Below are positions 2,487 to 61,557 of a DNA stretch of 63,953 nucleotides, in pieces (position 1 is the stretch's first letter; each line of letters opens with the position of its first letter). The notes beneath the pieces are model-generated. The model was not told the DNA's origin. It was given only the letters and a program-made list of their open reading frames with translations, and ran no database searches. Position numbers and translations under genes: made by a program. Source of the DNA: Rubrobacter sp. (lineage in GTDB: Bacteria > Chloroflexota > Chloroflexia > Thermobaculales > Thermobaculaceae); assembly GCA_016781845.1 (NCBI GenBank), contig JADDPP010000066.1:1-63953 (forward strand), given 5' to 3'.

Positions 2487-2535
2487 CGCGCATGTCTTCC
2501 GCGCCCCTCTCCGTTGGCGACATACGCCCTGCGGG

Positions 2536-10490: not shown

Positions 10491-10756
10491 CTGAACCACC
10501 TCCTGTGTCTGATGTTTACAGATGGCTCCAGTTCCCTGGTTACTGTCATCAAGATGGATGCCTACACATGCTCCATCACGTCCTCGTGCTTTTATGACTG
10601 AGGGGAATAGACCTGTCTTGCTTCCACAGTAGGATTGCAGTTCGGCTCCTTCAAGTAGCCTGGGATGCAGAGGCGCCCTGGCACTCGATGCGTGTCCATG
10701 CCGCATACGGCTTAAGGTCGTGCAGTAGCTAACTCTCACGCCACCCTCGGCCACCA

Positions 10757-42041: not shown

Positions 42042-44698
42042 GAAGATACCTCGACGCAAACAATGCTGTTACCGCAGTGCTACTGCTGGTGATGGTGGGT
42101 AGCCTTGCACGCTCGATCGAGCAGGGACGCTGGACGGACGGCCTCGACGTGCTGTTCCCCATCGCAGTGCTCGGAGTGCTCGTTGGTGTGCTTCTCGCTG
42201 GCAGCAACCTGGGCACCGTCCGGGCACACCTTGTCGGAGTCCTGGCGGGCCTGCTCGTCGTTACGTGGCAGACCGGCAGTCTCCTGCCTGCTGAGGCACT
42301 CGAGAACGGCAACAGGTTCGGCGTTGTGTGGGCGCGCTTCCGGGAGTGGCTCTCGGTGGTGATTGAGGGAGGGGCCAGCTACGACCAGCTGCTCTTCGTC
42401 TTCACTATGGGCGCTATCATCTGGTTCTTGGCGTACAACGGGGCGTGGTTCGTTCTGCGTTATGGCTGGGTATGGTGGGCTCTGCTGCCTACCGGGCTCG
42501 TGATGCTCGTGAACCTGGGCTACACCATCCGGCCGAACACGAGGCCGTTCGTGCTGTTCCTGCTCGCCTCCATGCTGCTGATGATACACACCCACCTCGC
42601 TCAAAGGCGTGCTCGCTGGGAGCAGGAAGGACTCGGGTACGAGGGGGGAATGCTGCCCAAGTTCCTCATGCTGGGAAGCGTGCTCTCGCTCGTCCTGCTC
42701 GCGCTTGCGTGGCAGGGACCGAGCCGTGGTCTGACGCGCACAGCGAGGGCGATCTTCGCTCAGGTGGAGCGTCCGTGGGAGCGCGTGCAGGACCGGTGGG
42801 AGAACGCATTCGCGTTCCTGTACCCTTCATCCGGAGGAGGCGGTCGCAGGAGCGGAATCGGTGGGGGCTTCACCAGCTTCAGCGACAACTTCGAGCTTGG
42901 CGGCCCGCTGCGGCTGGGCACTCGGACCGTCTTTACCGCGGAGGGTGAGCCTCGGCAGTACTGGCGCGGGGTCGTGTACGACGAGTACACCGGCCGGGGC
43001 TGGGGTGTCGGCGGCGGGCCTGAGGTATATCCTCCTGTGCAGCCCGTTCAAGGCAAACAGCTGGACCAGCGTGTGGCCCAGACGAAGCTGCCGAAGGGCG
43101 TGTACAAGGTTGACCAGGCGGTGACTGTCGTGCTCCCGGTCGGCACGAGTGTTTTCGCGGCCGACACCCCCGTGCGGTTCGACCGCCCCTCGCAGTGGCA
43201 ACTCAGCCCGGTGCTTCGCCAGCAGACGATGCGCCTTGACGAGGAACTGCCCGCGTCCACGGCGGTGGACAGAAAGCGCGCGTATGAGCTGAATGAGCTA
43301 CGACGGCTGATACAGGCTATAGGGCCGCAGCGGGTGCGGCAGGCATCTCTCGATGGAGGAGTCGAAGTCACGCCGCGGGTGCGCAGCGTTCCAGCTATCA
43401 ACAGACGCGGTGATGTTACAACCCCTGCTCCCGAAGCTACCCCGGCCCTGGATGAGGCGGAAGCCCGCCAGTCCGAGGAGCGCCTTACGGATGAGCTCAT
43501 AGCGCTCAATCGCAGGGGTATTCAGGCTAGCTTCCGATATCAGAGGGGCGCAGCTCCGGTCATACGATACGCTTACTACGAGGCGAACCAGCACGACCTG
43601 CAAGTGGTGACGGCGCAGCAGGCGGCCCGCAAGGGTGAGACGTACAAGGTGACATCGTTTGTCCCCAATCCTACGGACGAGCAGTTGAACGCCGAGCGCC
43701 GCCCAGTGCCTGAGTGGGTGCGGGATCGCTACCTGGAAACGGGATCTCTGCCAGAGCGGGTGCGAGCTAGGGCGCTGGAACTGACACAAGGGGCGAAGAC
43801 TACGCACGAGAAGGCACAGGCGATCGAGCTGTACCTGCGCAGTCTGAAGTACAAGGAGAATATGCCCCTCACCCCGCCCGGCCGTGATTTCGTGGACTAC
43901 TTCCTTTTCGACAGGAAGGAAGGATACTGCACCTCGTTCGCCTCGGCGATGGCGGTAATGCTGCGCTCCCTCGATGTGCCGGCGAGGGTGGTCACCGGCT
44001 TCGCGCCGGGTAAGTACGATACCAGGTTAGGTAGGTACGTCGTCACCGAGGCGCAGGCGCACATGTGGCCGCAGGTGTATTATCCGACGTACGGCTGGGT
44101 GAACTACGAGCCGACGCCGATACGCGACCTTGTCAGCCGCACCGAAGGCGTCGGAGGAGGGGCCTACAACCCTGGCATAGCTGCCGGAACCCGCCCCGGA
44201 GACGACCTGCTGCAGAAGAACCTTGACGGAAATACGATGGGCGGCAGCATTGGGGCTGCCGGGTCTTCGAGGCTGCCCGCGCCCGTCCGGTTCGTACTGA
44301 CGATCCTGCTCCTAATGGCGGTCCTCGCCGTGCTCGCACTGCTTGCGTATTTCATCTCGCTCGTCCGCCTGCGTGGTCTGCGAGGGGCGAGGAGGCAGTA
44401 CGCGAAGCTGCTGCAGGTGGGGAGCGTCCTCGGCGTTCGCCCCGCCCTGAGCCATACACCAGCAGAGCACAGTGCGCGGCTCGAAACGGCGATGCCAGGA
44501 GCGCGAAGCTCCGTACGGGAGATAACGAGCCGCTACGTGAGTGAGGTGTTCGGAAGGCAGACCCGAGATCACTCCGACCTGGACGGGGAGTGGAAGGCTG
44601 TCGCTACGCAGGCGGCGCGCGTCGCTCCCGGCAGGGTCGTCTCTGCTATCCGCGGGCTGCGTGGTAGTGTGTTTCTGGGGCGGCTGAGGCGAGGGTAG
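42038..44698 (+). CDS. Transglutaminase-like membrane protein (TgpA/DUF3488-type)
   Basis: About six N-terminal TM helices. The transglutaminase core is EGYCTSFASAMAVMLRSLDVPARVVTGF ... AHMWPQVY. Its start overlaps the DUF58 stop (ATGA). Confidence 0.85.
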   Translation: MRRYLDANNAVTAVLLLVMVGSLARSIEQGRWTDGLDVLFPIAVLGVLVGVLLAGSNLGTVRAHLVGVLAGLLVVTWQTGSLLPAEALENGNRFGVVWARFREWLSVVIEGGASYDQLLFVFTMGAIIWFLAYNGAWFVLRYGWVWWALLPTGLVMLVNLGYTIRPNTRPFVLFLLASMLLMIHTHLAQRRARWEQEGLGYEGGMLPKFLMLGSVLSLVLLALAWQGPSRGLTRTARAIFAQVERPWERVQDRWENAFAFLYPSSGGGGRRSGIGGGFTSFSDNFELGGPLRLGTRTVFTAEGEPRQYWRGVVYDEYTGRGWGVGGGPEVYPPVQPVQGKQLDQRVAQTKLPKGVYKVDQAVTVVLPVGTSVFAADTPVRFDRPSQWQLSPVLRQQTMRLDEELPASTAVDRKRAYELNELRRLIQAIGPQRVRQASLDGGVEVTPRVRSVPAINRRGDVTTPAPEATPALDEAEARQSEERLTDELIALNRRGIQASFRYQRGAAPVIRYAYYEANQHDLQVVTAQQAARKGETYKVTSFVPNPTDEQLNAERRPVPEWVRDRYLETGSLPERVRARALELTQGAKTTHEKAQAIELYLRSLKYKENMPLTPPGRDFVDYFLFDRKEGYCTSFASAMAVMLRSLDVPARVVTGFAPGKYDTRLGRYVVTEAQAHMWPQVYYPTYGWVNYEPTPIRDLVSRTEGVGGGAYNPGIAAGTRPGDDLLQKNLDGNTMGGSIGAAGSSRLPAPVRFVLTILLLMAVLAVLALLAYFISLVRLRGLRGARRQYAKLLQVGSVLGVRPALSHTPAEHSARLETAMPGARSSVREITSRYVSEVFGRQTRDHSDLDGEWKAVATQAARVAPGRVVSAIRGLRGSVFLGRLRRG

Positions 44699-45592: not shown

Positions 45593-45955
45593 ATGACGGA
45601 GTACAGCGCGTCGGTCATGCAGCGGATACGTAAGGGCCTCATGGAGGTGAAGTCGTCGGACAACGTTAATCTCGGGACTGTAACGGAGATATGGCCGGGC
45701 TCAGATCCCGAGAGCGCCACCGACCCGTGGGATGACCAAAGCTGCTCTCAGTTGGAGGTGTGGTATCACGGCCACATTCACAGAAGGCTATACATCCCGT
45801 GCGGCTGGATAGCACAGGTGTCCGGCAACTGCGTAAGCCTCAAGGTGGACGCAAGGACCGCCGAGACGATGGGCTGGTCCATCAGGCCAGACTGGATAAT
45901 GGATGATGGGAGATCGTTCCCACGGGATCTGCGCTCGTACGTCATCGTGGGCTAA
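45593..45955 (+). CDS. DUF2171/PRC-barrel-like small protein
   Basis: The ATG lies 7 nt after AAGGAGG. The pattern MEVKSSDNVNLGTVTEIW ... LYIPCGWIAQVSGNCVSLKV is DUF2171-like and paralogous in pattern to 10164..10490. Confidence 0.5.
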   Translation: MTEYSASVMQRIRKGLMEVKSSDNVNLGTVTEIWPGSDPESATDPWDDQSCSQLEVWYHGHIHRRLYIPCGWIAQVSGNCVSLKVDARTAETMGWSIRPDWIMDDGRSFPRDLRSYVIVG

Positions 45956-48249
45956 GCCTGAGCATGTTCGCCGCGCACCCGCCGCGGCCAGGGTCCTCCC
46001 TTTGTTTGTTGGGGAGCCTCGTACAGCACCGAGTCGCCGCTCCTGGACACGGGCGTGAGTACGCCCTCAAAGGGGTCGCGGACTGTGATACTCCTTTCCG
46101 CCTGCATCTCGCGCTCGAGATCTCCGTAGTACACGTACTTCACCGCGTAGCGCTCCAGCAGAGCGCGAGCCTCCTCAGCGTTATCGGGGTCGTATATGGA
46201 CGCCACGTCTTCGCTTCGTGAGGCGATCTCCCTGAGTAGTTCCGGCTGACCAAGTCGCCACTGCTGCTCGTGGCCCGCCCACCCGAGTACGGTGGGGCGA
46301 CCGGCGTACGTCGCGAGTCGGGCGTACAGGCTGTACTGGCCGCCCGTCGCCTCCAGGACGACATCACTGGGCCGCGTGTTTTTCCGTAGCCACTCGACGA
46401 TCTTATATGCGTCCCTGTCGTCATCGCGCAGAAATGCCGACGCATCGAGTCCGTTGTAGCCGCCCGCCGAGCGTTCCCTGACTCCCGCATACGGGTACGC
46501 GAGCGACAGTAGCAAGACCGTGACGACCACCGGTGTAGCAAGTCTTATCTTGTGGCCACCCGTGACGTGGAGAGAGAGGTGGTCGAGAGCACCGAGTAGC
46601 AGGACGGCGTAGGATATTCCGAGTAGCTGCCACGCCTGGTAGTAGAGCTTGAAGACCGTGTTCATCCGGTCGTCAAACACGTCTCGTAAAAAGAGTATCT
46701 CCGGAAGCAGCACGAGTGTCCAGCCGACACCGGAGAGCAGAAAGCCCCACCGTAGCGAGATGGACGGCAGGCACCAGGCGTTGTGAAGGCAGAGGACTAT
46801 CACTGGTGCAAGCAGGAGGAGCACAGGCGCATCGAGTAAAGCGGCCGGGACGAGAGCCGCAGCCGCTACGGCCGCACTCGCCGCCCAACCGTTCGGTCCT
46901 GCGGCCCGCGCAGTTGCGAGCAGTGCCAGCACGAGCAGGAGCACGTGAACGCCCCACACGCCCAGGAACTCCGAGACCTCCGAGTGGTCCCACCACACAA
47001 CCCCTAGGTAGCGGCCGAGCGTCGCGAGGAGCGGTACGGAGGCGACCCATTCGGGTAGTTCCGCACTATGGTGCACGGGCGCCTCGAAGCTCGCCAGGAA
47101 GGGCATCGCCGCCAGAGCCGCCGCGAGCAGGAGGGGTAAAGGTACGAGCAGTGCCATGCGAAGTCGTTCGCGCAGCCGCCCGCTCTGCGCGCCAACCACG
47201 GGGGATGCGACCGCGAGCGCCGCGACGACGGGCACATCCCAGCTGTTCGTCATGTATAACCAGCCGACTATCACCCCAGCCGTCACCGCTCCCACGAGCA
47301 ACTGTACTCGGGGCCGCCGCATGTACAGGGCGAGGGCGAGAGAGGCGCTTACACCGAGCGTGAACAGGGGCATCGCCATTACGTGCGGGTGAAGGTCGCC
47401 GAGCAGGAAGCTGAAGGCGGGAAACTCGCTGATGGGCTCGCTGGGGCTCGGCCTGCCCGGTATGGTATCAGCCACGACGCGACTGGGCCCCCACCAGTCG
47501 AAGCCGCGCTGCTCGCGCCATGCACGCCACCACTCGAAGGTGCCGGCCGGGTTCCCGATGAACAGTACCAGAAGCGGCGCGAGGAGCGCGCCCAGCAGGC
47601 GGGGGGCGCGTGCGGGACTGCCAGCAGCGACCGCGTTGTAGCCAACGCCTGCCAGGGTAACGAGGCTTACGGCCCAGGTGGTTGCGAGGGCGAGGTTGAA
47701 GGCGATGGCGGGAGGCACGCCGGAGAGCCGCGCGAGAAAAGCGTGCAGGTAGAAGCCGAAGTAGTAGTAGTTCGTTGTGTGCCCGGAAAGCCACAGGTCC
47801 GGCGGTGGCATGTAGCGGGCGGAGTAGGCGGCCTGCAGGTACATGTACTCCATTGGCTTCTCGGTGCCGCTGGCCTCGGGCATGTGCGCGCGCAGCAGGA
47901 GGAGGGCCAGGAAGGCGAGAAGGAATGCCGCCTCGACCGCCACTACATATCCGGTTAGCTCCCGAAAAAAGACCAACCAGGCCCTAAGATAGCCGCCCTT
48001 GTGCATCAGCAGCATTGACACGGATACGAGAGCCAGGGCGAGCACGGCCAGCCTGCTGGATGACCCGCCGAACGGGGCCAGCCCGAAGGAGGCGGCGAGC
48101 CAGGCGAGCCACCCCGCCGTGATCCACCCGAAAGCCTTCGACAGCGCGTAGCCGCGGTCGGGGAGGGATCGGAACAGCAGCCCGCACAGCGGCAGCGATA
48201 CCAGAGTCATCAGTTCCAGCCACAGCCACCACCGCAGTGCCTCAGCCAC
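45952..48249 (-). CDS. Chlor_Arch_YYY / DUF2298 polytopic membrane protein
   Basis: 765 aa and highly hydrophobic. It carries GTEKPMEYMYLQ...GHTTNYYYFGFYLHAF (YYYxG motif) and a soluble C-terminal domain. The GTG start overlaps the upstream stop by 8 nt. Confidence 0.8.
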   Translation of the reverse strand: MAEALRWWLWLELMTLVSLPLCGLLFRSLPDRGYALSKAFGWITAGWLAWLAASFGLAPFGGSSSRLAVLALALVSVSMLLMHKGGYLRAWLVFFRELTGYVVAVEAAFLLAFLALLLLRAHMPEASGTEKPMEYMYLQAAYSARYMPPPDLWLSGHTTNYYYFGFYLHAFLARLSGVPPAIAFNLALATTWAVSLVTLAGVGYNAVAAGSPARAPRLLGALLAPLLVLFIGNPAGTFEWWRAWREQRGFDWWGPSRVVADTIPGRPSPSEPISEFPAFSFLLGDLHPHVMAMPLFTLGVSASLALALYMRRPRVQLLVGAVTAGVIVGWLYMTNSWDVPVVAALAVASPVVGAQSGRLRERLRMALLVPLPLLLAAALAAMPFLASFEAPVHHSAELPEWVASVPLLATLGRYLGVVWWDHSEVSEFLGVWGVHVLLLVLALLATARAAGPNGWAASAAVAAAALVPAALLDAPVLLLLAPVIVLCLHNAWCLPSISLRWGFLLSGVGWTLVLLPEILFLRDVFDDRMNTVFKLYYQAWQLLGISYAVLLLGALDHLSLHVTGGHKIRLATPVVVTVLLLSLAYPYAGVRERSAGGYNGLDASAFLRDDDRDAYKIVEWLRKNTRPSDVVLEATGGQYSLYARLATYAGRPTVLGWAGHEQQWRLGQPELLREIASRSEDVASIYDPDNAEEARALLERYAVKYVYYGDLEREMQAERSITVRDPFEGVLTPVSRSGDSVLYEAPQQTKGGPWPRRVRGEHAQA

Positions 48250-51200
48250 CTGGCGTCACCTGGGCGCTGATATCGTCCATGTTACCCCACTGCCAGGAGG
48301 GCAGAACCTCGTACACTGTCACACCGGAGTTCCGGTACGCCACTCGCAGCGTGCGGTCCACCATCCGGTCAAACTTCGCCAGCCCTCGCGCAGATGCGTA
48401 CCGTACCACCGGCTCGCCCCTCGCTGGGTCGCCGAACTCGTGCAGCCGCTCTACTGGCCCAACGTAAACGTACCTCACGCCGTATCGCTCGATCACTTCG
48501 AGAGCTCTCCGCGTGTCGGGCGAGTTGTACAGGTCGCGAATTGCCGCGTGACGCTCCGACACCTCATCAGGGTACCGCTGCTGCGCCTCGTGGTTATCCC
48601 AGCCTACAAGGGTAGGCAGGCCGGTGAACATGGATACGCGTCCGCCGTTCCCACGGTACGGTCCGATGCTCGCCTCGACTATGGTCTCAGGTCGCCTCAC
48701 GTTCTCTCGCAGCCAGCGAATGGCTGCATAGTCCTCCGAGTAACGCTCCTCCATGCCCGACACGTTCTGCAGCGTAGCTGTCTCAAGAAACAACTCCCCA
48801 TCCAGGGTGAGGCCGCGCGGAGGCTCTGGGAACCGCTGCTGCAGCCGCGTGGCCGTACCGTAAACGGGGTAGACCAGGGATGCGGAGAGTAGCACGACGA
48901 GGAGCGCGAGCGGGAGGGCGCGGCCCAGCCGGCTATGGGCGATGGTGACCGCGAGCCACGCCAGCCCGGCGCAGCCTAGAGCCAGCAGTATCCAGCTCTG
49001 CAGACCAAACTTGAATACCGTGTTCATCCTGTACGCCGTGCTGCCCTCCAGGAAGTCCTTGAGATACAGCACCTCGATTCCCGTCCAGACCAGGAGGCCG
49101 CCAGCTGCGAGTCCACTCCACGTGAGCGCCACCGCGGACCGCCTGTTCGACCACGTCGCGTTCAGCAGGAGCCCGAGGAGGGTCACCAACAGGCCGAGCA
49201 CTGGACGGTCAAGGGCGAGCGCGATGCCGAGGCCGGCTAACCCGGCCACCGCGGCCACGAGGCGCGCCTTCCTGCCGCCCATCCACGCGCGCGCCGCTCC
49301 GTACCAAGCGGCCAGGAAGAGGAAGAGTCCCAGCATATTCAGGTAGACAGGCAGACCCGTGGGGTCCTTCACGACGCCTATCTCACCGTAGAAGCTCTTG
49401 AAGAACACGAAGAAAGGGAGGTAGGCGGCGGCTGCGACCGCCCCAAGCAGCAGGCCCGATAGCGCGAGCCGCGGCAGGGCAGCGAGCCGGCCAGTGTTGC
49501 AGAGCCAGTACACCCCCAACGCGAGGCCGAACATCCCTCCGTACGTCGGCACATCCCAGGGGTTGGTGACTGCGAGAGCGCCGACGAGCAAGCCAGCGAC
49601 TCCCGTGAGGAGGTATGTCGCGCGTGGCCGAACGCCTTCCCTGTACGTCACCACGTAGGCGCCGAGCAGCAGGAGAGAGAGGCCCAGTGGCATGCTGATC
49701 ATGTGTGCGTGAAGGTCGCCGTACAGAAAGGTAAAGAAGGGGAACTCGTGGATGAAGCCGCCTGGCTGGCCTATGTTCAGCCGTGAGCTGCGCCAGAAGT
49801 CGAAGCTCTGCCAGAGTGGTCCGCTCCTGTCACCCCTGAGGACTTCAACGGCCTGTACGATGCCGTCAAGGTTCCCGATTAGCAGCACGAATGCGAGTGA
49901 GATACCACCCACCACCACCGCCGCAGCCCTTCCCGCGCGCCACGCTACCGTGTAGCCAACCGCCGCGGCGAGCGTTCCGGTAAGCGCCCAGACGGTGGCC
50001 ACCGACAGGTTGAAGCCGTACTGGGGACCAACCATACTGAGACGCATGAGGGAAGCCACGATCCATTGGCCGAAGTAGTAGTAGTTGATGTAGCCGCCCG
50101 CGAACCACGGGTCATACGGCGGCAACTCCGAGCTACGCAGGATACCGTTGATGAACGCGAGCTCCATCGGCTTCTCGCCCCCGAAATACGGTTGCCAGAG
50201 GTCGGGGTTAGCGGCCCTCAGCAGCGCGCCCGCGGCGAAGAGCGCGAGGAACAGGGCCTCAAAGCCAAGCATCGCCTGCCACGCGAATCGAGCATCCCTG
50301 GACACCGCGCGCCGCCGCACGAGCGCCGCGATACCCGCCGACCACGCGAGAAGCACGGCCACGAGCCAGACGGTGCCCTGGCCGGCGGGTAGCAGCCCCA
50401 GCGCCGGGAGCAGCCACGCAAGCCACGAGAGCAGAACGACACCGAGCAGCTTGGCAAGCGTCCACCCGCGATCTGGAAGCGCCCGCAGCAGACCACCGAG
50501 CAGCAGCCACGCGGCGAGCCCCAGGACTTCGAGCGCGAGAAGCCAGGCCATGGTTGCGGTCCAGCCGGTGCTCGCGGACCCCCCAAAGTACGGCAAACCA
50601 GTCGCTGCGGCGTCGCGCCTGGGTGGGAGCAACAGGCTCTTCTCGACAGAGCCGTGTCGCTCGGGGGAGTAAGGGGCGGCGAGCGCGTCGACGAACAGGG
50701 CGTCGTACTCCCAATCCTCCAGGTTGCGTTCCTTTTTGAACACCACCGTAGTCGGGTGATCGTACACTGCCACGTTGTCGTCCGCACCTTGGGCCGGAAC
50801 GTTCAGTGTCCCCAGTCCGGGTCCGTCGTCGAACCTCGCGACCTCGCGGAACCCCAACCGCTCCTCGAAGAGCAGCTCGTAATAACGGATGGCGACCGCG
50901 TAGCGCCACGGGGAGCGGGGTATGGAGTCCGACAGTCTGTTCGTAGCCAGGACGATGTAGTCCGAGCTCCGCGCAGCCTCTTGCACCTGAGCTAGCTTCT
51001 GTTCCGGCGCCAAATCATCGTACATGGCGATCTGGTGATACTTGTACACACCCCGGTCCTCTCCCGGCAGGGCGAGAGGCAGCGGGTCATCCCAGTGCTC
51101 GTGGCCGACTGTGGCGCCGGCTGGAACGTTGTTGTACAGCCATTCCGAAGCCTGTATATAGTTGTGCGGGCGGGTGTAGATGCGACTCCACGCCAATACC

Positions 51201-52522
51201 CAGAATGCAGATCCGAGAAGCACAGCTCCCATCGCGAGACGTGGGATGAGAATCGGGTGCAAAGAACTGAAGGTGCGGCCCTCGTTCCTCAACCTTTGCC
51301 TGGTTTCGTGCCAGTGCCATAGAAGTGCCGCGCCCATTAGCAATAGTGCCGGGCTGATTGGAATCATGTACCGGAGCCACTTTGCCTCCAGCATCAGTAT
51401 CGAGAGGGTATACGGCGCTATCCACGCAAGCAGCAGGGCGTACCGCCAGTCGCGTCGGCGCGCCGTCCGGTAGACGCCCCAGAGCAGTCCCGCAGCAGTC
51501 AGGAGTCCGAGGGGTATTCCTGCGCCCCAGCGCACATACTGAGACAGGTGATACCAGCCTGGTATCGTGCCGACGTATTGCCTTGTGTACGGCACATCTA
51601 TGATGCCACGTTGAATCTGGCTCTCAGCGTTGATGTTAGCGAGGTAAGTCCGCAGGTCGAGCACAGCGTACGGCTCCCACAGCGCCCAGGCCAGAACCGA
51701 CACGATGCCCGCGAAGAGGGCTATCCGCACTCCGCGCACGAGCCGAGGCGCCCAGCCGCGCGGCGTATCGCTACCCGTCCTGTTATTCGGACCCGAGGCT
51801 GCCCCTACCGTCAGCAGCACCAGACCTGCGGGCACGAACGCTGCAGCACTCGGCTTCGTGGCGACCGCGAGGCCGAGCAGTAGCCCTGCGTAGAGAACGG
51901 CCCGCCCGTTCCTGTCCTGCAGCGCGCGCACTATCTGCAGCAGCGCGGCGGTGAGGAACATCGTCATTACAGGCTCGGCGACGTAGAAGTGGCTGAACTG
52001 CACCTGAAGGACGGTGAGCGCGGAGAGCGCCGCGGCGAGCAGCCCGGCGCCTGCGCCGAACAGCCGTCTGCCAAGCAGGAAGATACACGCGACGGTGAGC
52101 AGGTCGGCGAGCGCCGCGAGGGGACGCGCCACCCTGTATATAGCCGTCCAGTTCGCATACTCCTCGCCGAAGGCGACAGAGATGAGGTTGGAGGCACCCT
52201 TGAGCACGTACGGGAGCAGCGTACCGTAGGAGTAGCTCAGGTGCTGCCCATTCTCCGCCAGCCGCCTGGGGTTCATAGAACTACTGTCCGCCTGGAGGAG
52301 GGCGCTCGTGGAGGAGGGCCAGTGCAGGCGGTTCATCGCGACATCTATGATGTGGCGCTCGTCGGGATGAAGGTAATAGCCACCGTCCCAACCGACCCCA
52401 AGCAGGCGCGGCACTGCGGCGAGCGTGAGAATGAGCGCAAGCAGCAGCCAGACGGTGCGCGCGGAGACCTCCCTGCAGGATGTCTGCTGGGGTGCATGTT
52501 GGGGAGAAGCCTGTACAAACAT
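48242..52522 (-). CDS. Fusion membrane protein: GT-C/PMT_2 (family 39)-like N-terminal half plus Chlor_Arch_YYY/DUF2298 C-terminal half
   Basis: 1426 aa. The N-terminal part has a first-loop HPDERH motif and about 12 TM segments. The second part has GGEKPMELAFING...GGYINYYYFGQWIVASL. Its C-terminal soluble domain is paralogous to that of the downstream gene. Confidence 0.75.
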   Translation of the reverse strand: MFVQASPQHAPQQTSCREVSARTVWLLLALILTLAAVPRLLGVGWDGGYYLHPDERHIIDVAMNRLHWPSSTSALLQADSSSMNPRRLAENGQHLSYSYGTLLPYVLKGASNLISVAFGEEYANWTAIYRVARPLAALADLLTVACIFLLGRRLFGAGAGLLAAALSALTVLQVQFSHFYVAEPVMTMFLTAALLQIVRALQDRNGRAVLYAGLLLGLAVATKPSAAAFVPAGLVLLTVGAASGPNNRTGSDTPRGWAPRLVRGVRIALFAGIVSVLAWALWEPYAVLDLRTYLANINAESQIQRGIIDVPYTRQYVGTIPGWYHLSQYVRWGAGIPLGLLTAAGLLWGVYRTARRRDWRYALLLAWIAPYTLSILMLEAKWLRYMIPISPALLLMGAALLWHWHETRQRLRNEGRTFSSLHPILIPRLAMGAVLLGSAFWVLAWSRIYTRPHNYIQASEWLYNNVPAGATVGHEHWDDPLPLALPGEDRGVYKYHQIAMYDDLAPEQKLAQVQEAARSSDYIVLATNRLSDSIPRSPWRYAVAIRYYELLFEERLGFREVARFDDGPGLGTLNVPAQGADDNVAVYDHPTTVVFKKERNLEDWEYDALFVDALAAPYSPERHGSVEKSLLLPPRRDAAATGLPYFGGSASTGWTATMAWLLALEVLGLAAWLLLGGLLRALPDRGWTLAKLLGVVLLSWLAWLLPALGLLPAGQGTVWLVAVLLAWSAGIAALVRRRAVSRDARFAWQAMLGFEALFLALFAAGALLRAANPDLWQPYFGGEKPMELAFINGILRSSELPPYDPWFAGGYINYYYFGQWIVASLMRLSMVGPQYGFNLSVATVWALTGTLAAAVGYTVAWRAGRAAAVVVGGISLAFVLLIGNLDGIVQAVEVLRGDRSGPLWQSFDFWRSSRLNIGQPGGFIHEFPFFTFLYGDLHAHMISMPLGLSLLLLGAYVVTYREGVRPRATYLLTGVAGLLVGALAVTNPWDVPTYGGMFGLALGVYWLCNTGRLAALPRLALSGLLLGAVAAAAYLPFFVFFKSFYGEIGVVKDPTGLPVYLNMLGLFLFLAAWYGAARAWMGGRKARLVAAVAGLAGLGIALALDRPVLGLLVTLLGLLLNATWSNRRSAVALTWSGLAAGGLLVWTGIEVLYLKDFLEGSTAYRMNTVFKFGLQSWILLALGCAGLAWLAVTIAHSRLGRALPLALLVVLLSASLVYPVYGTATRLQQRFPEPPRGLTLDGELFLETATLQNVSGMEERYSEDYAAIRWLRENVRRPETIVEASIGPYRGNGGRVSMFTGLPTLVGWDNHEAQQRYPDEVSERHAAIRDLYNSPDTRRALEVIERYGVRYVYVGPVERLHEFGDPARGEPVVRYASARGLAKFDRMVDRTLRVAYRNSGVTVYEVLPSWQWGNMDDISAQVTPGG

Positions 52523-53920: not shown

Positions 53921-55249
53921 ATGAAGTGGAGTACAGTTCTGCGAGTGATTCTCATGCTGGCGCTGGTCTCCGGGGGAATGTTCGCCAGTCAGCGATCCCT
54001 CGACGCGAACGGGACGCCCTTCGAGGTGTGGGCCGTGGACCAGTCCGGCACGGCGGGCAAGCTGTACGTCTACGAAGGTGAGGAGCTTCAGAATGATGCG
54101 GCAGCGGCGGCGCCCGAGGTCTTCGACTTTGGCGGAGCTGTGGCGTCTCTCTGCCTGCAGCAGACGGGCTCGGCTCCGGTGAGGTCCCATATGCTTACGT
54201 TCAATCCCGCCCACACTCACGCCATCCTCTCGTATGTGGCGACGGGGCATGTGGTTTTCCTGGATGCCGCGACCCGCACGCCGCTCACATGCGTGGACGT
54301 AGGGACGCAGGCTCACGCCGCCTTTCCCTCCCCCGATGGCAGCTACGTAGTGGTTGCCAACCAGAACGGCAAGCTCCTGCAGAGGATAACTACGGACTAT
54401 GGGGCCAACACCTTCACGCTCGACGGAAGCGCCACGCTGAACTTGGCCACGTGCATCACCCCGAGCGGCGCGCCTTGCCAAGCACCTGGCGTGCGCCCGG
54501 ACAACGCCCCGATCTGCCCGGTGCTCGACTCCACCAGCCGATTAGTGTTCACGACGCTCCGCGGTGGTGGCATGTTCGTGGTGGATGGCACCACTACTCC
54601 CATGAGCATTATCGCCGAGTACGACACCTCGACCGTTCAGCCTGAGGGCTGCGGCGGCGTCGAGAGGGATGGGAGGCTGTACATCAACTCCGGCAACGCC
54701 AATCCCCCGGCATCTTACCTCTACTCCTTCCCGCTCGCTGGCCTGTCGGGCTCCGGCCCATACCCGCCGAACACACCCGCGCCGACAGTCGTCTTCTCCC
54801 AGACCGGTGGCGATTACAACACTCACGGCCTGGCGCTGAACAGGGCGATGCAGGGACGCTACCTGTGGACCGCCGATCGGTTCGCCAACACAATGGAGGT
54901 GGTGGATACCACCACCGACACCCTTGTAAGCACATTCAGCCTGGTCACCAGGCACAGCTCTGATCCGGCGCCCGATCTGATTGCGGTCGCGCCCGACGGA
55001 GGGTACGCGTTCGCGTCGTTGCGCGGCCCCTGCCCGCTAACCGCCAACTCCACCGCCACGAACAACGCCGTCGGATCCACGCCGGGTGTGGGAGTGATCG
55101 CGATACAGGAGGCCGGGCTGCGCGGCAAGCTCGTCGCTGTCGCACCTATCACGAATCCAAGCGCTCCGTTCACGTGCAGCACGGTAGGGGGCTCTCCAAC
55201 GCTAACCGAGAGGGCAGATGTCCACGGCATAGCTGTGAGGCTGAAGTAG
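53921..55249 (+). CDS. Secreted beta-propeller repeat protein (YVTN/YncE-like)
   Basis: Signal peptide MKWSTVLRVILMLALVSGGMFA. It has repeated strand patterns (FSPDGSYVVVANQNG, VAPDGGYAFASL) and several Cys pairs. Confidence 0.6.
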   Translation: MKWSTVLRVILMLALVSGGMFASQRSLDANGTPFEVWAVDQSGTAGKLYVYEGEELQNDAAAAAPEVFDFGGAVASLCLQQTGSAPVRSHMLTFNPAHTHAILSYVATGHVVFLDAATRTPLTCVDVGTQAHAAFPSPDGSYVVVANQNGKLLQRITTDYGANTFTLDGSATLNLATCITPSGAPCQAPGVRPDNAPICPVLDSTSRLVFTTLRGGGMFVVDGTTTPMSIIAEYDTSTVQPEGCGGVERDGRLYINSGNANPPASYLYSFPLAGLSGSGPYPPNTPAPTVVFSQTGGDYNTHGLALNRAMQGRYLWTADRFANTMEVVDTTTDTLVSTFSLVTRHSSDPAPDLIAVAPDGGYAFASLRGPCPLTANSTATNNAVGSTPGVGVIAIQEAGLRGKLVAVAPITNPSAPFTCSTVGGSPTLTERADVHGIAVRLK

Positions 55250-55463: not shown

Positions 55464-55820
55464 TCGCTGGATAGCGAGGGAGCTCGCGGACAAGCTCAAA
55501 GAGCTACTGGCGGTGCTGGGTGCAGGTCCAGTTGCATCAGTAGTAAACCTTGATGAGGGCTGGGACTATACCGGCGGGTTCCCTCTCAGCCTGTATGTGC
55601 TTTCTGATTTACGCTCCCTCAGCTACTGCCTCCGCACCTCCTTCTGGCCGCGCATCACGCTGCCCACCTCCTGTCTCGCCGTCTCGTCCAGCGTCCCCCT
55701 CTGTTGATCCCGACGCTACGAGTAGTCGCGGCTGCGCCCCGTTCGCTCATCCCACAGCTCGGCAGGTGCAGGCGTGCGACGCGGATGGTGCCCTGTGCTC
55801 CAAGAGGGAGAATGGGTGTA

Positions 55821-55842
55821 GAGACGTTGCACGCAACGTCTC
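55821..55842. repeat. REP-like palindrome, copy E (GAGACGTTGC-AC-GCAACGTCTC)
   Basis: 10-bp inverted arms with flanks GTA... and ...CGCAGC. It lies about 90 nt upstream of the giant ORF. Confidence 0.8.
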
Positions 55843-55929
55843 CGCAGCGTATCCCCATCCTTCACGATAGATTGTGGTGCAATGGGTGCAATGCGATCCC
55901 TATGCAAGCAGGCTTTACTCTGATATGAT

Positions 55930-58900
55930 TTGCGGCCAGTTACGCCTCCCTGTGCGTGTGTTCCGCGCGTGTGGCAAAGTGAGGTCACCGGCCCCCCTAC
56001 GCCGGTGGGAAAGGCCTACCAGTTGGCTCGCACTCAGCTATGGTGCGTCCTGTTTCTGCTGCTCGCGCTCGTATCCGGCAGCATAGCCCTCGCTACCGAT
56101 GAACGTCCCTGTGACGGCCCCCCTAACCTGGTTGCGAACTGCGGCTTCGAGCAGGGCAAGGCAAGCCGGCGCCTGAATCCCAACTCCACTGGCCCCTTCG
56201 AGATTGTGGAGGATGGTGCACGTAGCGGCGCGAAAGCTGCCGCGTTGTCCGCGGAGCAGTATACGGAGATAAGGCAGCTACTCAATATCTCTCCGCAGGG
56301 CAAGTACCGGTTGTCCGGGTACTTGCTGTGGACAGACCCTGAATACGAGAAGGCTGGCATCGGTATACGCTTCGGAATGCCGATCGGTTCCGCTCATGAT
56401 GTGGAGCTAGCCAACCAGTCCGAGAAATGGGAGCGGCTCGAATCCCGATGGCTGTCAGCGGGAGGCGCTACGGAAGCCGTCGTCTACCTGCGTGTGCAGG
56501 CGAACGGCAAGCTGCCCGACCAGCCCGTGCTCTTCGATGACATCGTATTGGAAGAGCAGCTACCGCCCCCGCCAACTGTCGAGCCCACGCGCGCTATTAC
56601 ACCTGGTCCCACGGTTACTGTTGCCCCGACCCACACACCCATCCCCACCAGCTCGCCTACTGCCGAGCCGACGAGCACGCCAACCCCCGAACCGACCAGG
56701 ACTCCGACCCCGCAACCCACTGATACACCCCCGCCCTCGCCAACCCCGCCGCCTGAGAGGGTGAGTATTGCCGAGGCCCGCACGCGCGATGGCGGGGAGC
56801 CTGTTTCGGTACGAGGCATCATCACTGCCCCTGCCCATACGTTGGGAGCGAAGAGGCTGTACGTGCAGGATGACAGCGGGGGCATCCTCGTCATGGTGCC
56901 GCAGGGCTCGCAGACTTATGAGGTCGGCCGGGTCGTGGAGGTGACGGGTATCCCTGGAAGCTACTTCGGGGAGCGCGCGATACGCACCCAGGTGGATGGG
57001 GGTGGAGTCACGGCCCGCGGCGCCGAGCCAGAGCCGGAGCCACGGGAGATTGCAAGCGGGGATGTGGGACCGGAGACGGAGGGGTCGCTCGTCCGTATCG
57101 AAGGCACGGTTGCCGCCGTGGCGAAGCCGAACGTGCGTGTGGACGATGGCAGCGGCGAGGCGCGCGTGAGGGTCGCGGGGAGCACCGACATCGTATGGCC
57201 TTCACCCCGAAAACATGACCAGTTGACCGCAGTTGGCATCGTTAGCTCGTTCAATGGCAGCTACCGGCCGATGCCCCGATACGACCGCGACCTCGTCGTT
57301 GTTCGGCACGAGCCGCCACCCACTCCAACACAGGAGCCGAGCGCTACCCCGACTCCTGAGCCGCCGCCCCCCCTGGTAAGCATCTCCGCTGCGCGGGCAG
57401 ACAACACGCGGGGTGTTGTCAGGATACGGGGTAGCGTCACCGCGCCAGCGCACCTGCTCGGAAAGAGACGGCTGTACATTCAGGACGGGGCGGCGGGCAT
57501 ACTCGTGGTGGTGCCGGAGGGCGAGGGTGGGGCGCTGCGGCCGGGCTCTATGGTAGAGGTCACCGGCAAGCCGGGTACTTACTTCGGCGAGCGTGCGCTG
57601 CGCGATGGTCGGGACGTTACGCTGCTAGCGACACGGGCGCCACCGACCCCGAGGAAGCTGAGCACCGGGCACATTGGCGTGGCAACGGAAGGGCTGCTCG
57701 TTGAAGTGCGCGGCCCGGTAACGCAGGTCGCGAAGCCGAGCGTCAGGCTCAACGACGGGTCCGGAGAGGCTCGGATACGGATTTCCCCCACCACCGGCTT
57801 GGCCTGGCCCTCGCCGCGCAAGCACGATACGCTCACGGCGGTCGGTGTAGTAAGCTCCTTCAACGGCCATTACAGAGTCCTACCCCGCTACAGAACTGAC
57901 CTGAGACTCGTGCGCCACGTCCCGCCTGAACCACTGCCCCGCGACGCGACGGTTGGGCAGGCGAGGGCCGCCAGCGAGCGTGAGTTGCTGCGTGTTCAGG
58001 GGGTAGTTACCGCTCCGCCCGGCCCTCTTGGAGAGGCGCGCTTCTGGCTGCAGGACGCGACCGGGGGTATCCTCGTAACCGGGGCGCGGAGCCAGGCGCT
58101 AAAGAGCGGAGACCGGGTGCGCGTGACGGGAGAGTCGGGCGCGGCGTACGGGGAGCGGCTGCTTCGGCTCAAGCGCGTGGAGCGGCTTGGTAGCGGGCCG
58201 GAGCCGCGACCGGTATCCGTAGCCCTGGCGCGCGTCGGAGCGCGGACAGAGGGCTTGCTCGTCGCGGTCGAGGGGCCAGTGGCGGAGTCAGCGTGGCCGA
58301 GCGTCTACATCGGTAGTCCTGACAGCCCGGTGCGTGTGTACGCCAGGGAGAGCACCGGCCTGGGCAATCCGCGCGCCCGCCGCGGAGACTCTCTGCACGC
58401 CGTGGGCATCGTGAGCGGATACCGGGGCAAGTACAGGGTGCTTCCCTTCCGAGAGACGCACTTGCGCCTCACGCGGCACGGTGGGGATGACGGTGACGAC
58501 GGTGGGGACACGACCGATGGCACCGCGCCCAAGACATGGCGCGATGTGAGCCTCCACGAGGTCGCCAGGCTCACCGTTGGCACCCGCGTGCGCTTCGAGG
58601 CACAGGTGACAGCGCCACCAGGAGTGCTCGGGGATGCGCGCGCGTACGTGGGCGCCTCCGGGGCTGGCATAGCACTGCATTCGCCAAAGGGGGGATATCC
58701 GCGCCTCTCGGAGGGTGACTGGGTGCGCGTCCGAGGCGAGCTCGACACGTACCACGGCGAGCGAATCATACGTCTGAAGGGCTCGGACGTGCTCCGTCTG
58801 GGCGCCGGTGAGCTGTTGCGTCCGGTCTCAACGGGCACCGGTTCCGTGGGGGCATCTCTGCAGGGGCAACTCGTGAGGGTGCGCGCGCCCATTACGCGCA

Positions 58901-60504
58901 GACAGTGGCCCACGCTGCAACTGGACGACGGTACGGGACAGACGCGCGTCCGTGTGATGGAGAGCACCGCTATACCACGGGTGGCGGGGGGCAGGGGCGA
59001 TACCGCGAACGTCGTGGGTATTGTCAGCCAGTGGGACGGCAGGTATCGCTTACTTCCCCGGTACCCCTCTGACCTCCTGATAGAACCTGCGGAGCCCGGG
59101 CCCGTAACAGGTGGCGACGAGCCACCTCCTGGAGACGCTTCGCGTGAGACGTGGCTCGATGTTTCGCTTGCGGAGGTGCGGGCGCTGCCAGCGGGTACGC
59201 GGGTGCGCTTCGAGGCACAGATAACGGCCCCGCCCGGCGTGCTCGGAGACACCCGCGCGTACGTGGGCACCTCCGACGCGGGCCTCGCGCTGCACCTGAC
59301 GGAGGGCGGTTACCCATCGCTGCAGGAGGGTGACCGGGTCCGGGTGCGTGGGAAGCTGGATACCTTTCACGGGGAGAGGATACTCCGCCTTGCGAAGGGG
59401 GCGGACGTGGAGTGGCTCGGCCCGGGCGTAGCCCTACAACCACGAGCGGCCGTAACAGGCGAATTGGGGGCTCACCTGGAGGGGCGACTGGTTGCGGTTG
59501 TCGCGCGCATCAAGCAGCGGCAGTGGCCGACACTGTACGTGGACGATGGCTCCGGTGAGGCGAGGGTACGCATCCTGGATGACACCGGAATCCCCAAGCT
59601 CGACGGCGGCGCGGGCGACGTGGTGTCAGCAACGGGCATAGTCAGCCAGTGGGATGGCAGGTACAGGCTTCTGCCGCGCTACGGGGCCGACATTCTAGCC
59701 ACGGCGCAGGTCGGCGGTGGTGCGGGAGAGGACACTGATGGGGACACCCACGCTGGAACTCCCGGTACTCCTGACACTGTAGAGCCTTCTTATCGCGATG
59801 TGACGCTTGCCCATTCCCGCACACTCCCTCTTGGCATGAAGGTACGTTTCGAGGCACGGGTGACCGCTCCCCCCAGCGTGCTGGGCGAGGCGCGCGCCTA
59901 CGTGGGTGACGAGATGACGGGCATCGCCTTGCATCTTCCAAGCGGGGGTTATCCATCGCTGACCGAGGGAGACAGAGTGCGCGTCCAGGGCGAGCTCGAC
60001 ACGTACCATGGGGAACGCATCGTTCGGCTGGAGAGCGGGGCAGATGTCTTCTGGCTGGAGTCGGGGACGCCGGTGCCGGCCCTAGCGGTACAGACCGGGG
60101 CCATCGGAGCGGGGACCGAGGGGCGACTCGTGACCGTGCAGGCCCCCATCGCCCAGCGGCAGTGGCCCACCTTGCGTATAGATGATGGAACTGGGGAGGC
60201 GCGGGTCAGGGTGGTGGACACGACGGGCATCCCGAAGCTCCGCGGAAGCAGGGGCGATGTGGCGGTCGTCACCGGTCTCGTAAGCCAGTGGGATGGTCGC
60301 TGGCGGGTACTGCCGCGCTGGCCTCGCGACATCGAGATAGCAGTCATAGCCACGGTCCCACGCAGCGGAGCTGGCGGTAAGAATTACAGCCGCCACGTGG
60401 CTGGATCGTGTCCGGACGCGCAAGTGCTTCCCAAACACTGGCAGTTCCGGTTCTATGGAGATGGGGAGGGTGTGTTGAGCTCGCACCGTGGAAGGGGGGA
60501 GTAG
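55930..60504 (+). CDS. Giant secreted repeat protein: CBM4/9-like jelly-roll, Pro/Thr linker, six tandem double OB-fold-like modules
   Basis: A single 1524-codon frame. The signal-like segment is KAYQLARTQLWCVLFLLLALVSGSIALA, so the real start is probably GTG 56005 or 55969. The CBM pattern runs NLVANCGFEQG...FDDIVLEE. The six modules are at 56761-57309, 57376-57918, 57946-58479, 58546-59082, 59161-59700 and 59800-60342. Confidence 0.8.
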   Translation: MRPVTPPCACVPRVWQSEVTGPPTPVGKAYQLARTQLWCVLFLLLALVSGSIALATDERPCDGPPNLVANCGFEQGKASRRLNPNSTGPFEIVEDGARSGAKAAALSAEQYTEIRQLLNISPQGKYRLSGYLLWTDPEYEKAGIGIRFGMPIGSAHDVELANQSEKWERLESRWLSAGGATEAVVYLRVQANGKLPDQPVLFDDIVLEEQLPPPPTVEPTRAITPGPTVTVAPTHTPIPTSSPTAEPTSTPTPEPTRTPTPQPTDTPPPSPTPPPERVSIAEARTRDGGEPVSVRGIITAPAHTLGAKRLYVQDDSGGILVMVPQGSQTYEVGRVVEVTGIPGSYFGERAIRTQVDGGGVTARGAEPEPEPREIASGDVGPETEGSLVRIEGTVAAVAKPNVRVDDGSGEARVRVAGSTDIVWPSPRKHDQLTAVGIVSSFNGSYRPMPRYDRDLVVVRHEPPPTPTQEPSATPTPEPPPPLVSISAARADNTRGVVRIRGSVTAPAHLLGKRRLYIQDGAAGILVVVPEGEGGALRPGSMVEVTGKPGTYFGERALRDGRDVTLLATRAPPTPRKLSTGHIGVATEGLLVEVRGPVTQVAKPSVRLNDGSGEARIRISPTTGLAWPSPRKHDTLTAVGVVSSFNGHYRVLPRYRTDLRLVRHVPPEPLPRDATVGQARAASERELLRVQGVVTAPPGPLGEARFWLQDATGGILVTGARSQALKSGDRVRVTGESGAAYGERLLRLKRVERLGSGPEPRPVSVALARVGARTEGLLVAVEGPVAESAWPSVYIGSPDSPVRVYARESTGLGNPRARRGDSLHAVGIVSGYRGKYRVLPFRETHLRLTRHGGDDGDDGGDTTDGTAPKTWRDVSLHEVARLTVGTRVRFEAQVTAPPGVLGDARAYVGASGAGIALHSPKGGYPRLSEGDWVRVRGELDTYHGERIIRLKGSDVLRLGAGELLRPVSTGTGSVGASLQGQLVRVRAPITRRQWPTLQLDDGTGQTRVRVMESTAIPRVAGGRGDTANVVGIVSQWDGRYRLLPRYPSDLLIEPAEPGPVTGGDEPPPGDASRETWLDVSLAEVRALPAGTRVRFEAQITAPPGVLGDTRAYVGTSDAGLALHLTEGGYPSLQEGDRVRVRGKLDTFHGERILRLAKGADVEWLGPGVALQPRAAVTGELGAHLEGRLVAVVARIKQRQWPTLYVDDGSGEARVRILDDTGIPKLDGGAGDVVSATGIVSQWDGRYRLLPRYGADILATAQVGGGAGEDTDGDTHAGTPGTPDTVEPSYRDVTLAHSRTLPLGMKVRFEARVTAPPSVLGEARAYVGDEMTGIALHLPSGGYPSLTEGDRVRVQGELDTYHGERIVRLESGADVFWLESGTPVPALAVQTGAIGAGTEGRLVTVQAPIAQRQWPTLRIDDGTGEARVRVVDTTGIPKLRGSRGDVAVVTGLVSQWDGRWRVLPRWPRDIEIAVIATVPRSGAGGKNYSRHVAGSCPDAQVLPKHWQFRFYGDGEGVLSSHRGRGE

Positions 60505-61557
60505 GTGGACAGAGTAGACGGCAGGTCGCTGCTTGAGGAGGAGATATACAGCCAGCCGGAGGTTGTCGCGCGGTTGCTGGAGCGCGAGACTGCGCACGCG
60601 GGCCAGATCGTTTGCCAGTTACCGGACTTTGAGTACATCCAGATAGCGGCACGGGGCACCTCCGACTACGCGGCGACATACGCCACGTACGCCTTGGCGT
60701 CGCTCGCTGGCTACCCGGTATCGCTGGCGACACCCTCGCTCCACACGATATATCACGCTCCACCCAGACTGAGGGGTGCGCTGGTGGTAGGCATCTCCCA
60801 GTCGGGGCAGTCTCCCGATATAGTAGCGGTGGTTGAGGAGGGCAGACGGCAGGGGCGGCCGACGCTCGCCATTACAAACGATGGCTCCTCGCCGCTCGCC
60901 GCCGCTGCGGATCATGTCATCGAGCTGCATGCGGGACCGGAGCGTAGCGTTGCCGCGACGAAGACGTACACGGCCCAGCTCGCGGTGCTGGCGCTCCTCG
61001 CTGCAACATGGAATGGGGACAGCCAGAAGCTCGCGGCGCTGCAGGGCATGCCGGAGGCGATAGCGAAAACCCTGGCCGGCGCGGGGGCGACGGTCTCGCA
61101 GAGGGCCGAGCGCTACCGGTACATGAGGCAGTGCGTAGTGATCGGTCGTGGATACAACTACGCCACTGCATTTGAGCTCGCGCTGAAGCTCAAGGAGTTG
61201 GACTACGTGATGAGCACCGCGTACTCGTCGGCGGACTTTCGCCATGGGCCTATCGCCACCGTCGAGGAAGACCTGCCGGTGATTCTCGTCATGCCCGCTG
61301 GAGCGGTCCTTGAAGACATGCTAGGCATGGCTAAGGACCTGCGGGAGCGCGGTGCAGAGTTGATAGCCATCTCCGACGCCGAGGAGGCGCGCCCGCTCGC
61401 GAGGACCCTGCTGCCGCTCGCTGCACCCTCGCCCGAGTGGCTCAGCCCAATTACCGCGATACTGCCGGGACAGCTGCTTGCGCTGCACCTGGCACTGGCG
61501 AAGGGGCTGGACCCCGACACGCCGCGCGGCCTCCAGAAGGTAACGCGCACGTACTGA
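60505..61557 (+). CDS. Double-SIS-domain sugar-phosphate isomerase/deaminase (GlmS C-terminal / NagB-II / FrlB-like)
   Basis: N-terminus LLEEEIYSQPEVVARLL, with SIS motifs IAARGTSDYAA and GISQSGQSPDIV, then a second SIS domain. The GTG start directly abuts the TAG of the giant gene. Confidence 0.75.
   Translation: MDRVDGRSLLEEEIYSQPEVVARLLERETAHAGQIVCQLPDFEYIQIAARGTSDYAATYATYALASLAGYPVSLATPSLHTIYHAPPRLRGALVVGISQSGQSPDIVAVVEEGRRQGRPTLAITNDGSSPLAAAADHVIELHAGPERSVAATKTYTAQLAVLALLAATWNGDSQKLAALQGMPEAIAKTLAGAGATVSQRAERYRYMRQCVVIGRGYNYATAFELALKLKELDYVMSTAYSSADFRHGPIATVEEDLPVILVMPAGAVLEDMLGMAKDLRERGAELIAISDAEEARPLARTLLPLAAPSPEWLSPITAILPGQLLALHLALAKGLDPDTPRGLQKVTRTY

Follow-up and report, generated by a model that had tools for sequence, protein, structure and literature searches.

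The DNA examined here, a 63,953-nucleotide contig of Rubrobacter sp. from the phylum Chloroflexota (JADDPP010000066.1, referred to below as the window), carries at positions 55930 to 60504 of the forward strand an intact gene for a large protein of this phylum that is likely to be exported by the Sec route. Behind a head domain with the predicted fold of a carbohydrate-binding module (CBM), the protein strings together six homologous modules, each made of two oligonucleotide/oligosaccharide-binding (OB) folds. As judged from profile alignments, the module is a divergent DUF5689 domain, and the architecture is a divergent six-fold DUF5689 array and not an unrecognised fold family. On balance we think that the protein probably binds extracellular nucleic acid, as a Sec-exported, non-enzymatic and multivalent binder.

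An intact gene for six double OB modules

The reading frame 55930..60504 (+) contains 1524 codons and a stop and is free of interruptions. The TTG listed as its start probably lies too far upstream, the true start being the TTG at 56023 (codon 32), since the three sister proteins, which group with the query in one clade (P0002, P0003 and P0121; the query is P0001), begin at the equivalent position and a putative signal peptide is found there. By inspection, a start at 56023 gives M-ARTQ-LWCVLFLLLALVSGSIALA followed by TDE, with a 19-residue hydrophobic core and an AXA site (ALA/TD). The identical protein sequence was called on 6 contigs, including those of 2 separate NCBI assemblies (GCA_016782175.1 and GCA_017884185.1), and nucleotide identity between modules reaches at most about 60%, or 72% in the best 197-nt stretch. 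An assembly artefact through repeat collapse or expansion is therefore unlikely, since the same sequence recurs across assemblies and the copies are too diverged. The features of the gene are the following.

55930..60504, forward strand: whole open reading frame (ORF) as listed; codons 1-31 probably form a 5' extension that is not translated
56023..56094, forward strand: probable TTG start and putative Sec-type signal peptide MARTQLWCVLFLLLALVSGSIALA, AXA cleavage before TDE (by inspection; sister starts equivalent)
56095..56559, forward strand: head domain, aa 56-210, predicted CBM-like beta-jelly-roll (AlphaFold2 and Foldseek)
56560..56754, forward strand: Pro/Thr-rich linker, aa 211-275 (from the sequence); site of the lamin-tail domain in the sisters
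56758..57315, forward strand: module 1 (M1), DUF5689-like double OB, aa 277-462; net charge about -3 to -4
57373..57924, forward strand: module 2 (M2), aa 482-665; strongly basic, net +13, isoelectric point (pI) 11.3
57943..58482, forward strand: module 3 (M3), aa 672-851; basic, net +10, pI 10.9; a distinct type, orthologous to M3 of P0003
58543..59097, forward strand: module 4 (M4), aa 872-1056; basic, net +5 to +7
59158..59715, forward strand: module 5 (M5), aa 1077-1262; near neutral; the module modelled with AlphaFold2
59797..60354, forward strand: module 6 (M6), aa 1290-1475; near neutral; orthologous, by position, to the final module of P0002 and P0003
60355..60378, forward strand: C-terminal motif VPRSGAGG (MPRTGGGG, MPRTGGGA and VPETGGGG in the three sisters)
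60379..60504, forward strand: C-terminal tail and stop, non-conserved and non-hydrophobic (alignment with the sisters)

The six modules of about 185 aa were defined by alignment, using motif anchors, MAFFT and hidden Markov models (HMMs), and the motifs GER...R and YR.LPRY each recur six times. All six match, over their full length, an HMM built from non-query modules only (140-177 bits, E 1e-45 to 1e-56), a sequence match that is far beyond chance and that, together with the ORF reading, confirms the uninterrupted 1524-codon frame with six modules described in the initial annotation of this DNA. Self-BLASTP of the protein returned the identity match only. Tandem Repeats Finder, run on 55500-61000, reported a 24-nt period at 56647-56711 within the Pro/Thr linker and did not detect the repetition of the modules, whose copies are too diverged for it.

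Amino-acid identity is 56% between M1 and M2, 59-63% among M4, M5 and M6, and 34-42% between groups. The module tree resolves three types (M1/M2; M3; M4-M6). The sisters have positional orthologues of these, to which the query modules are 58-65% identical. Since its module types have these positional orthologues, the array is old and maintained; most of the duplications are older than the clade, and only that of M4 and M5 looks lineage-specific. The two waves of tandem duplication first proposed are thus too simple a history, and the near-identical nucleotide runs attributed to modules 4 to 6 have to be narrowed, as the exact runs that were quoted occur in M4 and M5 only.

Module 5 was modelled with AlphaFold2 from a 48-sequence module alignment. 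The model (pLDDT, or predicted local distance difference test, 97.3; predicted template modelling score, pTM, 0.91) consists of two five- to six-stranded beta-barrels held as one rigid unit. In a Foldseek search of the PDB the top matches were all tandem-OB binders of nucleic acid (E 6e-6 to 1e-3). Teb1-AB was the best (E 6e-6), and POT1, the Deinococcus/Thermus single-stranded DNA-binding protein and RPA70-AB were also found, along with dozens of HIN-200 domains (p202, p204, AIM2, IFI16, MNDA), several of them bound to double-stranded DNA (dsDNA), including the p202-dsDNA complex 4jbm. The prediction that the modules are double OB folds is borne out by these results. In the model the OB fold is clear, and the geometry between the barrels is the module's own. 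The HIN-200 domains share with the module a length of about 190 aa and two tandem OB folds (Foldseek probability 1.0, E 1e-5 to 1e-4), but there is no detectable sequence relationship: structural alignments give 7-14% identity and template modelling scores (TM-scores) of about 0.4, and neither the query nor the family modules match the HIN-200 model PF02760 in Pfam, so that the likeness is structural only. HIN-200 domains bind the dsDNA backbone non-specifically and belong to intracellular innate-immune proteins. At the sequence level, a profile of the six modules found nothing significant among PDB sequences; the 48-sequence module profile found weak matches only, mostly to OB folds and covering both halves (YgiW, RPA, the N-domain of aspartyl-tRNA synthetase, RMI2 and STN1).

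On the Pfam model for DUF5689 (PF18942, 217 positions) the query scores 24.4 bits, below the gathering cutoff of 28.6, and only profile positions 42-96 are covered by its match; of its sisters, P0003 with 29.7 bits and P0121 with 44.3 bits exceed the cutoff. When the six query modules were aligned by hhalign with 12 modules of DUF5689 proteins, 11 of which pass PF18942 individually, the match extended end to end over 179 columns (probability 99.6%, E 2e-23). The coordinates of the module HMM coincide with PF18942 stretches in multi-module proteins, and outside the query clade PF18942 is strong and repeated: five stretches and 191 bits in P0212, a lamin-tail domain with five stretches in P0259, and, in P0210, four stretches (187 bits) with a phospholipase D (PLD)-like, nuclease-type domain and the Por secretion tail of the type IX secretion system (T9SS). 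The architecture had first been taken as belonging to no described family. Its module is in fact Pfam DUF5689, which has been linked to extracellular DNA uptake (PMC12478041, PMC8459023).

Further Pfam matches of the query were weak matches to OB-fold models, which for PF01336 sum to 62 bits, with others to RMI2, DUF4131 and DUF5689. On the ExeM/NucH model NF033681 the query matches positions 30-113 of 546 only, in three stretches (E 3e-15), and over the whole protein it reaches 56 bits, where the cutoff is 300. Among the 48 family modules, 13 match NF033681 and 29 match PF01336. These matches uphold the relation to ExeM/NucH and YhcR-type extracellular nucleases that had been recognised by pattern, and they suggest that DUF5689 corresponds to at least the first OB fold of the ExeM/NucH OB region. 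The query modules are of the same type as the N-terminal OB region of ExeM/NucH (Xds) and of B. subtilis YhcR, but the query lacks the endonuclease/exonuclease/phosphatase (EEP), SNase or 5'-nucleotidase domain of those proteins and has the OB unit amplified six-fold.

The head was modelled in the same way. Its AlphaFold2 model is all-beta and of moderate confidence (pLDDT 69.9, pTM 0.68), and it rests on a three-sequence alignment because a word-indexed homologue search with the head alone returned zero matches; that search also missed the protein's own database entry, which makes the result a limit of the tool and not a finding. Foldseek matched the model to a CBM16 (2zew, TM-score 0.66/0.71), a CBM22 (4xup, 0.63), a porphyran CBM (8xmz, 0.62/0.69), and also to CBM61 and CBM4. 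With Pfam, the query head gave zero matches even at E 0.1, PF02018 included; the head of the sister P0002 is borderline on PF02018 (CBM_4_9; 25.7 bits, cutoff 25.9). The fold of the head is, with the moderate confidence of its model, a CBM-like jelly-roll, as had been read from its sequence pattern. It agrees in predicted fold and size with the type B jelly-roll CBMs (CBM4/9/16/22/61) and differs from them in having no significant sequence match, a model with pLDDT of 70 and a putative ligand only.

Relatives of the array and its missing parts

A search of 5.8 billion proteins gave 132 homologues, and the domain counts given here cover the 120 that were listed. Apart from the clade, the homologues are mostly "lamin tail domain-containing proteins" of Limnocylindria and Anaerolineae. 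The lamin-tail domain PF00932 is present in 109/120 and a nuclease domain in 0/120. In 98/120 the protein ends with a C-terminal hydrophobic helix, which is mostly followed by an Arg cluster; this helix is absent in P0001, P0002 and P0003. Homologues carry two to three modules, three being the commonest number. Among the best 261 proteins, 17 have one module, 85 two, 148 three, 1 four, 7 five and 3 six, so that six modules are rare without being unique; the two others are P0188 and P0220. In a profile search of 1.84 billion cluster representatives, the module profile matched 19,591 clusters at E<=1e-3, 10,379 at E<=1e-10 and 1,920 at E<=1e-30, and the query ranked first (1132 bits). A whole-protein scan of the genome contigs found no relative. 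By these numbers, arrays free of nuclease are common, usually behind a lamin-tail domain, and six-module proteins exist elsewhere.

The usual layout in Chloroflexota consists of a signal peptide, a lamin-tail domain, a Pro/Thr linker, two to three double OB modules and a C-terminal transmembrane (TM) helix with RRRR. Such proteins share with the query, besides the phylum, the homology of the modules (whole proteins at E down to 1e-49), the signal peptide, the Pro/Thr linkers and the absence of a nuclease, whereas the query has a CBM-like head and six modules but neither lamin-tail domain nor TM anchor. The ends of ExeM, a lamin-tail domain and GG-TM-RRRR, are mirrored in these relatives of the query. 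P0002, P0003 and P0121, the last of which came from the later representative search, have a signal peptide, a CBM-like head, a lamin-tail domain, five modules and no TM helix; the query differs from all three by the absence of the lamin-tail domain and the addition of a sixth module. The lamin-tail domain lies at aa ~205-303 in P0002, aa ~214-297 in P0003 and aa 229-325 in P0121. In its place the query has the 65-aa Pro/Thr linker alone, a state that would fit a deletion between Pro/Thr linkers on either side of the domain. What sets the query apart is that a CBM-like head and six modules go together with the lack of a lamin-tail domain and of an anchor, which makes it an extreme of a very large family.

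The initial annotation had found neither an enzyme domain nor an anchor in the protein, and our scans agree. Pfam and NCBIfam detected no catalytic domain in the query, including PF03372 (EEP), and Pfam detected no PF00932. No C-terminal hydrophobic helix is present (best Kyte-Doolittle value 0.75). The idea that a C-terminal TM helix is hidden by a frameshift was rejected, as all three frames after 60330 are without a hydrophobic segment. All four members of the clade share the motif [MV]P[RE][TS]GGGG near the C-terminus, which is LPXTG-like but is followed by a TM helix in no frame; the combination of motif, hydrophobic helix and basic tail that marks a sortase LPXTG signal was not found. 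From its sequence, the motif might serve in sorting or processing, as a signal that is degenerate or unrecognised.

Gene neighbourhood

The window is an ordinary piece of chromosome, with genes for DnaE, GyrA, arginyl-tRNA synthetase and PolX, and an Rfam scan of it returned 0 families. The best matches of its GyrA are at 57% identity, in Limnocylindria-like Chloroflexota metagenome-assembled genomes, which assigns the window to Chloroflexota at the level of the phylum only. The neighbours of the gene encode a formyltransferase, a secreted propeller, SIS and NamZ proteins and DUF2298 proteins; no TonB-dependent transporter or secreted nuclease adjoins it. An inference of function from an operon was rejected, as the gene context differs between the query and P0002.

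Directly upstream and on the same strand (53921-55249) lies a 442-aa ORF with a signal peptide and a beta-propeller-like sequence. It falls into no Pfam family and has one significant match only, to 1L0Q (E 4e-7), the YVTN propeller of a surface-layer protein from Methanosarcina; judging by this match, it may be another envelope or surface protein. Two adjacent genes on the reverse strand, 45952-48249 and 48242-52522, encode giant DUF2298 membrane proteins, the second with a PMT_2 domain (protein O-mannosyltransferase-like). The PMT_2-bearing gene is 3.4 kb from the query gene. Long Pro/Thr linkers are typical sites of O-glycosylation, and a functional link between the PMT_2 protein and the Pro/Thr-linker protein would be speculative. 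Further away, at 40776-44698 (+), a DUF58 gene followed by a gene for an 886-aa transglutaminase-like protein forms the usual MoxR/DUF58/transglutaminase-type cluster and looks ordinary.

Immediately downstream, a SIS-domain gene (60505-61557, +) is followed by a NamZ gene (PF07075; 61597-62748, +). NamZ, formerly DUF1343, is an exo-N-acetylmuramidase, and we take SIS and NamZ together to serve muropeptide recycling. A DUF1343 gene was also recovered, alongside a DUF5689 gene, in a screen for natural transformation in Riemerella (PMC8459023); its recovery and the NamZ neighbour here are probably a coincidence.

Among the homologues, three Limnocylindria genomes have the gene immediately upstream of a nucleoside phosphorylase gene, which gives weak support, broad synteny being common to these genomes. 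The order in L084, L085 and L086 (positions ~2400-11900) is DnaE, a small ORF on the opposite strand, the lamin-tail/double-OB gene, PNP_UDP_1, DUF5679, GAPDH, PGK and enolase.

Nucleic acid as the probable ligand

Our reading of the protein as a binder of nucleic acid is drawn from the tandem-OB nucleic-acid binders among its structural matches, from the contexts in which DUF5689 is found, and from the basic modules M2, M3 and M4, three in a row with pI of 10.5-11.3. In Bacteroides thetaiotaomicron the ddbABCDEF locus is needed for the depletion of exogenous DNA, and its DUF5689 protein DdbD, whose AlphaFold model resembles the dsDNA-bound HIN domain of p202 (PDB 4JBM), was proposed as the substrate- or DNA-binding lid of the TonB-dependent transporter DdbC (PMC12478041, published in PNAS in 2025). 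The entry 4jbm is common to that comparison and to our Foldseek list. In Riemerella anatipestifer, a transposon screen published in 2021 found that natural transformation requires the DUF5689 protein RA0C_RS04920 (PMC8459023). The nuclease activity of Shewanella ExeM requires its "YhcR-like" region, which has two OB folds, and the lamin-tail domain is dispensable (PMC6085458); a role of the lamin-tail domain in targeting to the membrane or envelope was proposed by Mans et al., as cited in that paper. Like DdbD and RA0C_RS04920, with which its modules are homologous end to end (~190-217 aa), the query would be secreted or surface-exposed and is without catalytic residues, and for the query module as for DdbD the predicted fold resembles the HIN domain of p202. 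The description of DdbD goes no further than that of a DUF5689 protein; its partner is a TonB-dependent transporter, and their operon, in a diderm Bacteroidota, is rich in nucleases, whereas the query comes from Chloroflexota and has six copies of the module, a CBM-like head and no transporter or nuclease as neighbour.

If this reading is right, six rigid pairs of OB barrels on flexible Pro/Thr or Gly/Asp linkers would give a high-avidity hold on a long polymer, for which extracellular DNA or RNA is the most likely candidate, with DUF5689 acting as the substrate-recognition part that it would be in the extracellular DNA-handling systems of ExeM/NucH, DdbD and the Riemerella protein. The CBM-like head might tether the string to a glycan of the cell's own envelope, to matrix polysaccharide or to an environmental particle; it stands where the relatives have their lamin-tail domain and may substitute for their C-terminal membrane anchor. 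The likely role would then be to capture extracellular DNA or to keep it at the cell surface, either so that separately encoded enzymes can scavenge it or take it up, or for matrix cohesion.

Several points weigh against nucleic-acid binding. TM-scores to the HIN domains are only about 0.36-0.43, and the geometry between the barrels differs. Module net charge is not conserved in the family, with a median of 0 and 37% of 688 modules at or below -5; arrays of the Bacteroidota or T9SS type (P0188, P0210, P0212) carry -17 to -26 per module, and within the query the net charge of M1, M5 and M6 is neutral or acidic. This family-wide survey weakens any simple argument from electrostatics that the modules bind DNA. 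In the 48-sequence alignment the near-invariant residues are mostly Gly, Asp/Glu and one Arg, and they look structural rather than DNA-contacting. Some family modules also match models of the periplasmic OB folds of the BOF/YgiW type, which to our knowledge are not known to bind nucleic acid. No nuclease, transporter or competence gene adjoins the query gene, and the gene context is not conserved in the sister P0002. As to the head, its model is only moderately confident and the query head itself has no Pfam match. DNA binding by DdbD is a structural inference, no DNA-binding assay of DdbD being reported in that paper (PMC12478041), and in the literature that we searched we found no binding assay for any DUF5689 domain.

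A more specific proposal extends the preferred reading. The query would be the glycan-tethered, six-module prototype of a DNA fishing line, which captures long extracellular DNA and hands it to separate nucleases or uptake machinery, and the arrays of its relatives would form a class of receptors. We put this forward tentatively, as a possibility that is more apt to fail than to hold.

The strongest rival, which we consider rather unlikely, makes the protein an adhesin or a structural component of the envelope or matrix and gives its OB modules a ligand other than nucleic acid, the candidates being a glycan of the cell wall or S-layer, an anionic polymer of the wall and another protein. The DUF5689 array would then be a spacer or a stalk-and-adhesion device, and the association with nucleases would reflect surface display and not DNA binding. 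The unconstrained charge of the modules, with many very acidic family members, fits this explanation, as do the matches to BOF/YgiW-type models, the CBM-like fold of the head and an envelope-rich neighbourhood (two DUF2298 proteins, one with PMT_2; the S-layer-like YVTN propeller; NamZ and SIS). The relatives, moreover, are anchored in the membrane at the cell surface and carry lamin-tail domains, whose proposed role is in targeting to the membrane or envelope (as cited in PMC6085458). However, the curated or characterised contexts of the module are related to nucleic acid (ExeM/NucH, DdbD, the Riemerella protein and, less certainly, the PLD-like fusion), its structural neighbours are nucleic-acid binders, and three consecutive modules of the query are strongly basic.

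A special case of nucleic-acid binding, with an obligatory enzyme partner, is that the protein is the non-catalytic targeting or processivity subunit of a separately encoded secreted nuclease or phosphatase, that is, an ExeM/NucH protein split in two genes. The activity of ExeM requires its OB region (PMC6085458), the N-terminal part of the ExeM/NucH model has a match in at least the first half of the module, and fusions with a PLD-like domain exist; but no nuclease gene adjoins in the 64-kb window and the nuclease-free architecture is the rule (120/120 close homologues), which leaves this explanation improbable. That the gene is a decaying and non-functional remnant, with lamin-tail domain and anchor lost and a junk tail, might be suspected from the lack of the lamin-tail domain of all three sisters, the lack of the TM-RRRR anchor found in 98/120 homologues and the non-conservation of the last 42 residues, but is very improbable given a 4.5 kb frame free of stops in a 64% GC genome, six modules that all keep full-length, high-scoring matches and are positional orthologues of those of the sisters at 58-65% identity, a sequence identical in independent assemblies, and, in all four members, a missing anchor and a retained C-terminal motif, which mark a feature of the clade and not a lesion.

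Extracellular DNA is a major pool of phosphorus, nitrogen and carbon in soils, sediments and fresh water, a substrate for natural transformation and a component of biofilm matrices, and we know of proteins that first bind it outside the cell for a few model bacteria only. DUF5689 has only recently been tied genetically to DNA uptake, in Bacteroidota, and arrays of it that lack a nuclease abound in Chloroflexota, for example in Limnocylindria. The query offers a clean test case for DUF5689 arrays as extracellular DNA receptors, and its basic modules M2-M4 suit a binding test. If DNA binding is false, the OB pair would be a general extracellular binding scaffold. If it is true, it would give a function to a very large family at the DUF level and a hint of how abundant uncultured Chloroflexota forage for or take up DNA. 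Should the tentative capture-and-hand-over proposal also hold, thousands of nuclease-free lamin-tail/DUF5689 arrays would be an unrecognised class of extracellular DNA receptors, the counterpart of the DdbD lid of Bacteroidota in monoderm or atypical-envelope bacteria of abundant soil and freshwater lineages.

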